DNA of 64,000 nt from Clytia hemisphaerica (lineage: Eukaryota), in assembly GCF_902728285.1 (NCBI RefSeq), contig NW_027104315.1, positions 162,032 through 226,031 on the forward strand, in the 5' to 3' direction. A program made the translations under genes and the position numbers. Positions 57,005 to 58,775 of the stretch are shown here, one piece after another. Under the pieces are notes generated by a model. It had not been told where the DNA came from, did no database searches, and was given only the letters and a program-made list of their open reading frames with translations. Every line of letters begins with the position of its first letter. The stretch's first letter is position 1.

Positions 57005-57820
57005 ATGTCATCGGAGCAGTTCTTATCACCAGAGATGATGAGTCATCAGGATCCTTTACCAACTGATCTAAACGAGACAAACGAGACACTCCATCAACTA
57101 ACCTTTATCACCAGATACGAAAATATACATTGCACTCTTACTGACGTATTAGAATCGTACGTCATTCCGTCAATCGGTGCCGTCATCGTCATTTTTAACG
57201 TCGTAGTTATTTATTACATGTTGAGATATCGACGTTGCCGACAGCATAACCCGATTGCTACCGTATATATGATAAACATGGTTATCGGCGACTTATTTGT
57301 CGGTCTTGTTATCATTCTCGTGAAATCTACCGACTACGCTTTCGAATCCCGACAACACGAATTCTCATACGACAAATATATGTTATTTAGAGATTGCATC
57401 ATTCGTTTATCGCTTTTCATCTCCGTGTTGAATCTTATACCACTGACTTTAGATCGTGTATGGGCTGTTAAGTATCCGATTTCACACCGACAGAGTAAAA
57501 AGACGATTGCTATTAAAATTTGTATCGCTGTATGGTTTCTTGCTATTTTATTTATCGCGATCATGTATTTATTCCATTTTACGAGGAATCTTGATCACTT
57601 TGCTTTAAACAGACTGATTTTCCCGCTCGCTACTTTCCCGACAACTCTCGTATTCATCGTTTGCTATATCGTTATTTTTCGGGAACTACGACGAAGTCGT
57701 CAGTACCGAGAACGCTCGGGATCCCGAAGTGCGAACATGATGCATGTAACGAGTCAGTTAAGTGTTGAATCAAGATCAAGCAGTATCATCAGTCTCGGTA
57801 AATTTGATGAAAAGCGAGGA
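57005..57820 (+). CDS. Class-A (rhodopsin-like) GPCR exon 1: N-terminus with NETNET glycosylation sites, TM1-TM5, DRV(W) variant of the DRY motif, ICL3
   Basis: ORF 57005..57847 with several 20-25 aa hydrophobic segments, LTLDRVWAVKYP after TM3, basic ICL3; donor gag|gtacgg. Confidence 0.75.
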
Positions 57821-57877
57821 GAGGTACGGAAATCTTTATTACAGTAAACCATAGGATAGGAGGAACGAGCAATAGCG

Positions 57878-58017
57878 TAGACAGGAAGGGCGCAAAATTT
57901 GTGTAGGAGAGCAAATTTTGTGGAAACTGATTATCTATTCATAATGTAAAAATATAATTAGAGTGTCATAAAAATCTGCTCTCCTACTCAAATTTTGCGC
58001 CCCACCTGTCTACGCTA
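57878..58017. mobile_element. Small MITE inside the GPCR intron (TIR AGCGTAGACAGG-GGGCGCAAAATTTG-GTAGGAGAGCA)
   Basis: 57878-57917 versus 57978-58017 inverted. Confidence 0.55.
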
Positions 58018-58400
58018 CTGAATGAGTATACTCTAACCCCTGACCTAAGTGGCTCGGTTACCTAACAAAATCTACAAGGGGGACTATGAAAATAGTAAAA
58101 TTTCATCAGTTTGACTTTGCAAAAAACGTTTACCTCGATCTTCGCCGGGAGGGGGGATAAATCTCCAGCGTGTTCATTTATCACCCCATCGGGCCTTAAA
58201 ATTAGGTCCTTTTGACAACTTTTTTCACCGAGTTATCCACCGGGCTGGATATGACCGGGTTACTGACACAAGGGAGAATTCGTATCTCTTCTTTATGTTA
58301 CGAAATTAGGTTGCACAGTGGACCTTATCATTTTAGGGTCTTTTATATTGGCTGAAAATTTAAAGAAATAATCCAAATTTTCCACCATTTATTTTTTCAG

Positions 58401-58775
58401 GTCAAATTCGTACAACTTGCTGTCAAAACTGTTGTCATATTCATTTTATGTTGGTTTCCCATAGCAACGTGCGGTATGGCAAACTGTAATTATAAACTCG
58501 AATCTATATTTATGATACTCGGCTTTGCAAACGCCGCTGTTACGCCATTAATCTATTACACGCATTTACGGCAAGCGTTGGGCCGCCGTATACGAAGATT
58601 AACGTCTCGACGGCAACCGTCAGCTGCACCGCTAGCGTTGAGTAAATCCGTTTGTACGGTAATCGGACGAATTGACCGACAAGTGGAGGATACACCGACA
58701 AGCGTACGGAAAGGGAATTGTAGTATTATAGCAGCATCCGAGAATAACAGACTGGTTGTTGCTAGATCATATTAA
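58401..58775 (+). CDS. GPCR exon 2: TM6 (FILCWFP, CWxP motif), TM7 (NAAVTPLIYY, NPxxY variant), C-terminal tail, stop
   Basis: Acceptor attttttcag|; in-frame continuation VKFVQLAVKTVVIFILCWFP; ORF 58476..58775 covers the 3' part. Confidence 0.75.
   Translation, partial: VKFVQLAVKTVVIFILCWFPIATCGMANCNYKLESIFMILGFANAAVTPLIYYTHLRQALGRRIRRLTSRRQPSAAPLALSKSVCTVIGRIDRQVEDTPTSVRKGNCSIIAASENNRLVVARSY

Follow-up and report, generated by a model that had tools for sequence, protein, structure and literature searches.

An orphan class A receptor gene of Clytia hemisphaerica expressed in planula and stolon, and its place in a medusozoan receptor expansion

The published catalogue of Clytia G protein-coupled receptors (GPCRs) holds 536 putative members, 377 of them in class A (PMC7053711). 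The only deorphanized Clytia GPCR is the MIH receptor (MIHR, MF459558), which was chosen as an oocyte-expressed candidate. Here we describe another receptor of the same species and the same Pfam class, encoded on the plus strand at positions 57005-58775 of a 64,000-nucleotide (nt) stretch of Clytia hemisphaerica DNA (hereafter the window; contig NW_027104315.1 of RefSeq assembly GCF_902728285.1, positions 162,032 to 226,031 of the forward strand). The best explanation of the data as a whole, to which we assign a probability of about 0.8, is that this locus is a conserved, single-copy orphan class A GPCR gene, expressed in planula and stolon, whose product works as a conventional metabotropic receptor. 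The gene is already known, as it has been annotated, catalogued and profiled, and as one of the 377 class A receptors in the catalogue it matters little beyond confirming its annotation. What the analysis adds is that the RefSeq label "somatostatin receptor" is without phylogenetic support, that the receptor comes from a medusozoan expansion in which Tyr3.51 and the disulfide between transmembrane segment (TM) 3 and extracellular loop (ECL) 2 are generally absent, that it is part of a conserved single-copy ortholog group with a rare Thr7.49/Ala7.46 pocket, and that published counts place its transcript almost only in planula and stolon.

The described receptors closest to this one resemble it in limited respects. 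MIHR also departs from the canonical DRY motif, reading SRY, but the similarity between the two proteins is local only (29.6 bits over 49 residues). Moreover, MIHR has both the Cys3.25 and ECL2 cysteines and an NPIIY motif, while our receptor lacks that cysteine pair and its gene yields 0-1 counts in oocytes. Lipid-type and MECA-type receptors (LPA1, S1P1, CB1, melanocortin) have no TM3-ECL2 disulfide, an intraloop cysteine pair in ECL3 and basic residues near position 3.28. These loop and basic features resemble those of our receptor, and CB1 and LPA1 are among its top profile matches. However, their scores fall in the same band as those of amine and peptide receptors, with no preferential similarity, and the resemblance is a lead rather than a membership. 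The likeness to human SSTR1 (about 20% identity) is the generic similarity of class A receptors with seven TM segments (7TM). The TM7 signature of somatostatin receptors is YANSCANPILY, against FANAAVTPLIY here, and our receptor differs further by the absence of the Cys3.25-ECL2 disulfide and by Ile rather than Asp at position 3.32. Finally, peptide receptors of cnidarians and bilaterians are reported to have expanded independently, and the gamma-rhodopsin receptors, which include the somatostatin receptors, to be bilaterian-specific (Thiel et al. 2024, PMC11087051).

Gene structure and receptor fold

On the plus strand of the window, a 280-codon open reading frame (ORF) opens at ATG 57005 and a second ORF closes at the stop codon 58773-58775. 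Splicing of 57005-57823 to 58401-58775 yields a protein of 397 amino acids, with the following organisation (ICL, intracellular loop):

57005..57823, plus strand: coding exon 1, Met1-Glu273 (N-terminus with two NET glycosylation sequons, TM1-TM5, ICL3 to Glu6.30)
57824..58400, plus strand: phase-0 GT-AG intron of 577 nt, separating Glu6.30 from Val6.31
58401..58775, plus strand: coding exon 2, Val274-Tyr397 and stop (TM6, ECL3, TM7, helix 8, C-tail)
57798..57799, plus strand: alternative donor GTAAAT, 26 nt 5' of the productive donor, whose use puts exon 2 out of frame and cuts the protein short after TM5

The two-exon structure proposed in a first-pass annotation of this sequence agrees with both the RefSeq model and a published transcript, and its intron does lie at ICL3, in phase 0 after Glu6.30 at the border between ICL3 and TM6. 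The proposed exon junction held at its 3' side, as transcripts splice exon 1 to 58401, but exon 1 ends at 57823 and not at 57820, the original join being 3 nt (one codon) short. A join at 57820 would lose Glu273 and leave no GT donor. The productive donor is the GT at 57824-57825 (GTACGG), and the acceptor is the AG at 58399-58400 (CAG), which follows a T-rich, pyrimidine-rich tract. The junction of the published transcript TCONS_00047850 reads KRGE/VKF and matches the 57823-to-58401 splice.

A second catalogued isoform, TCONS_00047851, reads IISLG/QIRTTCCQ at its junction and ends in GKL, as predicted for a 57797-to-58401 join that gives a 5-TM product. The productive donor GTACGG is weak and the upstream GTAAAT looks stronger, while orthologs carry GTAAG or GTAAA at the productive site. 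Reported counts of the two isoforms are near-identical.

RefSeq already holds the spliced protein as XP_066930005.1 ("somatostatin receptor type 1-like", Clytia hemisphaerica; UniProt A0A7M5XG88), with 100% identity from end to end, and the sequence shows a single difference (A316V) from TCONS_00047850, which is listed in the catalogue of Clytia GPCRs by Quiroga Artigas et al. (2020; PMC7053711, S1 Text). A tblastn search of the window with the receptor detected no paralog, and the locus is single-copy in Clytia hemisphaerica.

The gene encodes a rhodopsin-class (class A) GPCR with a complete fold, in agreement with the family assignment of the first-pass annotation. The match to Pfam 7tm_1 (PF00001) runs from position 2 to position 260 of the 260-position profile and reaches 80.4 bits, against a cut-off of 30.5 bits (E = 1.9e-22); it is therefore far beyond chance. 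The seven TM segments initially proposed were found by hydropathy of the spliced protein, in an AlphaFold (AF2) model computed from a 72-sequence alignment (seven TM helices and helix 8; mean pLDDT 80.1, pTM 0.76) and in the published catalogue, which lists 7 predicted TM domains for TCONS_00047850. A Foldseek search against the PDB gave 1206 matches at E <= 0.001, and all the listed ones are class A GPCRs. The anchor residues of the class are kept, namely N1.50 (N65), D2.50 (D96), R3.50 (R151), W4.50 (W177), the CWxP6.50 motif (C290-W291-F292-P293) and P7.50 (P322), and in the profile alignment the TM5 proline seems off by one position relative to P5.50 of H1.

Family placement, motifs and selection

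An exhaustive HMMER search of 1.84 billion representatives returned 446 matches at E <= 0.001, 100 at E <= 1e-10 and 10 at E <= 1e-30. Residue frequencies given below are those of relatives aligned to the family profile, the ortholog group being counted apart. Compared at the sequence level, the receptor belongs to a large medusozoan expansion of orphan class A GPCRs, which bears out the earlier suggestion of a lineage-restricted orphan receptor. Named relatives, with 25-38% identity over the full length, come from Hydractinia (Hydrozoa) and Rhopilema (Scyphozoa); among these members of the expansion are Hydractinia XP_057311764.1 ("LPAR3-like"), XP_057315917.1 ("GPR21") and XP_057301822.1 ("orexin receptor 2-like"), as well as Rhopilema XP_065063453.1 ("NPFFR2-like"). 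Members share with our receptor Arg3.50, Ser3.39, Asn7.45, the CWxP motif, a residue other than Tyr at 3.51, the absence of the TM3-ECL2 disulfide and the ECL3 cysteine pair, and frequently Arg3.33 and Glu6.30; some of them seemingly have an intron at the same Glu6.30 boundary. Where our receptor has Thr7.49 and Ala7.46, however, they carry Asn or Asp and Ser, respectively, and in most of them the N-terminal tail is almost absent. The ortholog group, in contrast, carries Thr7.49, Ala7.46 and a C-terminus of the ENNxIVxGRS type, and most of its members have a glycosylated N-terminus of 40-60 amino acids.

Neither sequence-profile nor fold (Foldseek) searches against the PDB singled out a characterised family. 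With the single sequence as query, SSTR1 was the best PDB match (9ik8 / 8xio, E = 5e-11). With the family profile, SSTR1 (2.5e-24) fell below H1 (4e-30), beta2 (9e-27), CB1 (1.5e-26), NPFF2, CCK-A, 5-HT1F, GPR119 and LPA1. The top Foldseek matches were similarly mixed, SSTR1 (first, E = 1.6e-07) being accompanied by D5, TAAR13c, FFA2, beta2 and SUCNR1. Since no bilaterian family is preferred and the gamma group is reported to be bilaterian-specific, the RefSeq name is an automatic best-hit label and not an established orthology.

Three specific identities were considered and rejected. A somatostatin receptor is not preferred by the profile and does not fit the TM7 sequence FANAAVTPLIY or Ile3.32. 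For an amine receptor, the expected Asp3.32 is replaced by Ile133 (a register checked against the H1 alignment), and for an opsin, the Schiff-base Lys7.43 is replaced by Phe315. The absence of Asp3.32, together with the mixed search results, agrees with the first-pass remark that no similarity to amine or peptide receptor signatures is obvious.

RefSeq names conflict within the clade, where LPAR3-like, melanopsin-like, GPR21, orexin receptor 2-like, rhodopsin-like and NPFFR2-like labels coexist (P0012, P0159, P0168, P0173, P0180 and P0022 in our set). Best-hit naming is unreliable for cnidarian GPCR expansions.

The motifs on which the first-pass annotation relied (LDRVWAVKYP, CWFP, TPLIYY and RRIRRLTSRR) are all present in the protein:

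57452..57460, plus strand: DRY-position motif D150-R151-V152 at the end of TM3, within LDRVWAVKYP, as read in the sequence
58449..58460, plus strand: CWxP motif C290-W291-F292-P293 in TM6; C, W and P invariant in the family alignment
58542..58559, plus strand: NPxxY-position motif T321-P322-L323-I324-Y325-Y326, with Thr at 7.49; preceded by Ala318 (7.46)
58584..58613, plus strand: RRIRRLTSRR, basic helix-8/proximal tail segment with an RRxT (PKA-type) sequon; [IL]RRLT.{1,2}R[RK] in orthologs

Both the DRY-position and the NPxxY-position motifs had been flagged as non-canonical, and the comparison with relatives separates them. At position 3.51, the 143 relatives carry L (45), Y (34), M (23), F (16), V (12), I (7), W (4) or C (2). 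The canonical D/E-R-Y is thus absent here (Val152), but Tyr3.51 is found in only 34 (24%) of the 143 relatives. As Tyr is scarce and Val is among the residues found in relatives, DRV is, on this alignment, ordinary within the medusozoan clade; Val3.51 is invariant in the ortholog group (6/6 sequences covering TM3). Position 7.49, on the other hand, is N in 78, D in 23, S in 8 and T in 1 of 112 relatives, so that the Thr321 of our receptor, in place of the Asn or Asp of NPxxY, is distinctive. Similarly, position 7.46 is Ser in 107 of 112 relatives. Thr7.49 and Ala7.46 occur together in all ten ortholog-group sequences (8 distinct), and they are what is distinctive and lineage-fixed in this group.

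Positions 2.50, 3.39, 7.45 and 7.49 line a sodium/water pocket, and most class A receptors have a highly conserved Asn at 7.49 (PMC6037435). Three of these pocket residues are retained here (Asp2.50, Ser3.39 and Asn7.45). The switch residues Arg3.50, Tyr5.58, Glu6.30 (the final codon of exon 1), CWxP, Pro7.50 and Tyr7.53 are also present. Cysteines lie at positions 43, 78, 131, 173, 220, 290, 297, 302, 358 and 380: position 3.25 is Met126 and no cysteine is found between TM4 and TM5, so that the Cys3.25-ECL2 disulfide is missing, while C297 and C302 form a conserved pair at the end of TM6 and in ECL3. All orthologs carry both Arg3.28 and Arg3.33, the latter being shared by 92 of 141 relatives. 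ICL3 contains a conserved serine cluster (SRSSSIISL), and the Arg-rich C-tail noted earlier corresponds to a conserved basic helix-8 segment whose RRxT sequon is a putative kinase site.

Eight further proteins, orthologs of the Clytia receptor, share 52-59% identity with it, all of them exon-1 ORFs on marine metagenome or read-archive contigs, and all eight contain [LI]DRVWAV[KR][YW]P. The same phase-0 GT-AG intron site, after DEKKxE, is found in five orthologous loci, with introns of 239-1825 nt. In the loci that were fetched, exon 2 retains CWFP, NA[AT][VL]TPL[IV][YH]Y and [IL]RRLT.{1,2}R[RK], and LALSKSVC and an ENNxIVxGRS-like C-terminal end are kept in most orthologs. Nei-Gojobori dN/dS is 0.039 between Clytia and its closest relative, L010 (272 codons), and 0.057 between L001 and L003. 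These ratios, estimated from aligned coding sequences, show the gene to be under strong purifying selection, and it is therefore not a pseudogene. The most divergent ortholog, L006 (536-1213, 3039 onward), has 53% identity and the 1825-nt intron.

Expression, proposed function and competing explanations

The expression data called for by the first-pass annotation exist in the published catalogue. Normalized counts of TCONS_00047850 from bulk RNA-seq (two replicates; PMC7053711, S5 Data) are as follows:

growing oocytes: 0, 0
full-grown oocytes: 0, 1
gonad ectoderm: 4, 4
gonad endoderm: 1, 0
early gastrula: 2, 6
planula P2 (48 h): 217, 295
planula P3 (72 h): 108, 245
gonozooid: 7, 3
polyp head: 0, 2
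stolon: 107, 34

Among the sampled stages, the mRNA is thus shown to be almost confined to 2-3-day planulae and stolon. The 16 receptors cloned in the MIH deorphanization work (PMC7053711) do not include this one, and our literature search found no paper giving a ligand for it. A full-text search for TCONS_00020848 and TCONS_00047850 retrieved no papers, these identifiers occurring only in the PMC7053711 supplements. A search for the sequence and its identifiers in the supplements of a study of Clytia planula cell types (PMC12225738), which uses XLOC identifiers, gave no match.

Under the conventional-receptor reading, an extracellular ligand would bind within the TM bundle, and the conserved switches (Arg3.50 with Glu6.30, CWxP, Tyr5.58 and Tyr7.53) would relay the resulting change to a heterotrimeric G protein. 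Signalling would probably be tuned by phosphorylation of the ICL3 serine cluster and of the RRLT site past helix 8. The ortholog group would have rebuilt the sodium/water pocket under the ligand site, by replacement of Ser7.46 with Ala and of Asn7.49 with Thr, a change more likely to shift basal activity or sodium sensitivity than to abolish signalling. The role of such a receptor is probably in larval and early-colony sensing or in neuroendocrine signalling. For the ligand, we see even odds that it is a small, diffusible and possibly anionic molecule rather than a long peptide. We lean this way because of the combination of residues and loops found in the clade: no TM3-ECL2 disulfide, a short and cysteine-free ECL2, mostly minimal N-termini, the ECL3 cysteine pair and basic residues in the putative pocket (Arg3.33 throughout the clade, Arg3.28 in orthologs).

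Several points weigh against this reading. What is directly observed is an expressed, conserved 7TM receptor, and all function assigned beyond that is inferred. The pocket arginines and extracellular loops make a weak case for a small ligand, and the pocket-facing position of Arg134 is putative. Melanocortin receptors have the same loop features and yet bind peptides. Mutation of Asn7.49 often impairs coupling, and Thr7.49 could thus be a mark of atypical signalling. In most class A receptors, Asn at this position is strongly conserved (PMC6037435). Besides Thr7.49 and Ala7.46, ortholog L006 also has Asp2.50Asn and Tyr7.53His, which suggests, from this one sequence, that activation switches are drifting further in its lineage. 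Lastly, medusa sampling in the bulk RNA-seq consisted of the gonad only.

A possible, though less probable, alternative is that the receptor responds to an amidated cnidarian neuropeptide, such as the planula GLWamide that controls settlement and metamorphosis, like MIHR and the deorphanized Nematostella receptors. All cnidarian class A GPCRs deorphanized to date bind neuropeptides (PMC7053711; PMC11087051), expression of our gene is enriched in planulae, where neural cell types express specific class A GPCRs (PMC12225738), and NPFF2 and CCK-A are among the PDB profile matches. However, peptide receptors score no better than receptors for amines, lipids and carboxylates, the similarity to MIHR is confined to the 49 residues mentioned above, and the receptor combines a missing Cys3.25-ECL2 disulfide with a short, cysteine-free ECL2, whereas MIHR has both cysteines. 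In addition, the searched supplementary text files from the work on Nematostella neuropeptide GPCRs (Thiel et al. 2024, PMC11087051) contain neither its sequence nor its identifiers. The residue changes described above raise another explanation, namely an atypical receptor, whether constitutively active, biased towards arrestin or acting as a ligand scavenger, in which Val3.51, Ala7.46 and Thr7.49 uncouple agonist-driven G-protein activation. Its appeal is that two residues of the sodium/water pocket which hardly vary among relatives have given way to Thr7.49 and Ala7.46, the former at a position where Asn is the rule in class A (PMC6037435), and that L006 adds two further substitutions. We nevertheless consider it doubtful: Val3.51 is normal for the clade, Thr keeps a hydroxyl able to form hydrogen bonds, the intracellular loops are likewise under strong purifying selection, and Arg3.50, Glu6.30, Tyr5.58, CWxP, Pro7.50 and Tyr7.53 are retained in Clytia and in most orthologs.

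Two further explanations concern the locus rather than the protein. The first-pass annotation had drawn attention to the position of the gene inside an NLR-like cluster, and NACHT, NWD1-type and WD40 ORFs do flank it: NACHT, NWD1-type helix-turn-helix (HTH) and WD40 ORFs lie upstream, and downstream, on the minus strand, there is a paralogous WD40 ORF with 55% identity. A receptor functionally coupled to these NWD-like genes within a cluster for innate immune sensing seems very improbable to us, as none of the NWD-like ORFs of the window was matched in the flanks of five orthologous loci (a limited test, with about 4-6 kb of flanks), and mobile-element ORFs (reverse transcriptase, GIY-YIG) are abundant, which fits a repeat-rich gene-family neighbourhood better than an operon-like unit. 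Gene adjacency in eukaryotes is by itself weak evidence. Least credible of all is a pseudogene or annotation artefact. The weak productive donor, with a stronger cryptic donor 26 nt upstream that yields a frameshifted transcript, would be in keeping with it, but the 397-codon frame is unbroken, the published transcript is full-length and reaches 100-300 normalized counts in planulae, dN/dS is about 0.04, and at least 8 distinct orthologous sequences preserve the motifs and the intron site.

Returning to the conventional-receptor reading, larval GPCRs are candidate mediators of settlement and metamorphosis, and the gene is therefore a reasonable, although not outstanding, candidate for deorphanization or knockout in Clytia. 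A more specific proposal, which we regard as a long shot, is that the Thr7.49/Ala7.46 group is a hydrozoan-specific receptor, restricted to planula and stolon and with a rebuilt sodium/water pocket, and that it senses a cue for settlement or metamorphosis. The cue could be a product of bacterial biofilms or an endogenous peptide or small molecule. If true, such a settlement-cue receptor would offer a molecular entry into how hydrozoan larvae decide to settle.

Genomic neighbourhood

The DNA of the window is AT-rich (about 31-40% GC). The following features surround the receptor gene or lie in its intron:

2592-2936, plus strand, and 8156-8461, minus strand: two opposed copies of an ORF of about 100 amino acids starting KIEIWSKLVKFVPLRVVKFP
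6036-7814, plus strand: reverse-transcriptase ORF (Pfam RVT_1, E = 1.4e-27)
9711-10061, plus strand: isolated exon-like ORF matching a trypsin domain (E = 1.2e-15, profile positions 53-135)
20779-21735, plus strand: GIY-YIG nuclease ORF of 319 amino acids (E = 1.4e-05), just upstream of the NACHT exon
23349-23681, plus strand: NACHT/NPHP3_N P-loop ORF (Pfam match)
24705-25334, plus strand: NWD1-type HTH/winged-helix ORF (weak match)
27448-28317, plus strand: WD40-repeat ORF (match)
47053-47829, plus strand: acidic Asn/Gly/Asp-rich tandem-repeat ORF (DNGGNxDKNN-like units); opposite strand also open; no Pfam match
49117-49503, plus strand: WD40-repeat ORF (match)
57870..58020, unstranded: intronic inverted repeat (arms of 59 nt with 85% complementarity, spacer of 33 nt), folding as a long hairpin
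62301-62660, minus strand: WD40 ORF, downstream of the GPCR gene

Upstream of the receptor, NWD-like ORFs span 23349-29573 and 47053-49503, all on the plus strand. The string of ORFs at 23349-29573 is probably one multi-exon NACHT-WD40 (NWD-like) gene. The WD40 ORFs at 49117-49503 (plus) and 62301-62660 (minus), which lie on either side of the GPCR gene, share 55% identity over 80 residues and look like paralogous NWD-like genes in convergent orientation. The tandem-repeat ORF at 47053-47829 adjoins the WD40 ORF at 49117. A tblastn comparison of all window ORFs of at least 90 amino acids with the orthologous loci, whose flanks are short (about 4-6 kb), matched the receptor alone. Thus, the clustering noted in the first-pass annotation is real as a matter of position, but we see no evidence of functional meaning in it and no linkage at the orthologous loci.

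The two opposed ORF copies flank the RVT_1 ORF, and together the three look like a retroelement with inverted flanking repeats, while the GIY-YIG ORF may belong to a Penelope-like element. The trypsin-domain ORF is probably part of a serine protease gene.

Finally, the inverted repeat in the receptor intron is single-copy within the window, and its predicted RNA fold has an energy of -79.9 kcal/mol (z = -13.2). An Rfam scan of the hairpin gave only sub-threshold matches to generic or MITE-like plant microRNA hairpins. This repeat could be an insertion of a miniature inverted-repeat transposable element (MITE) or a hairpin RNA.

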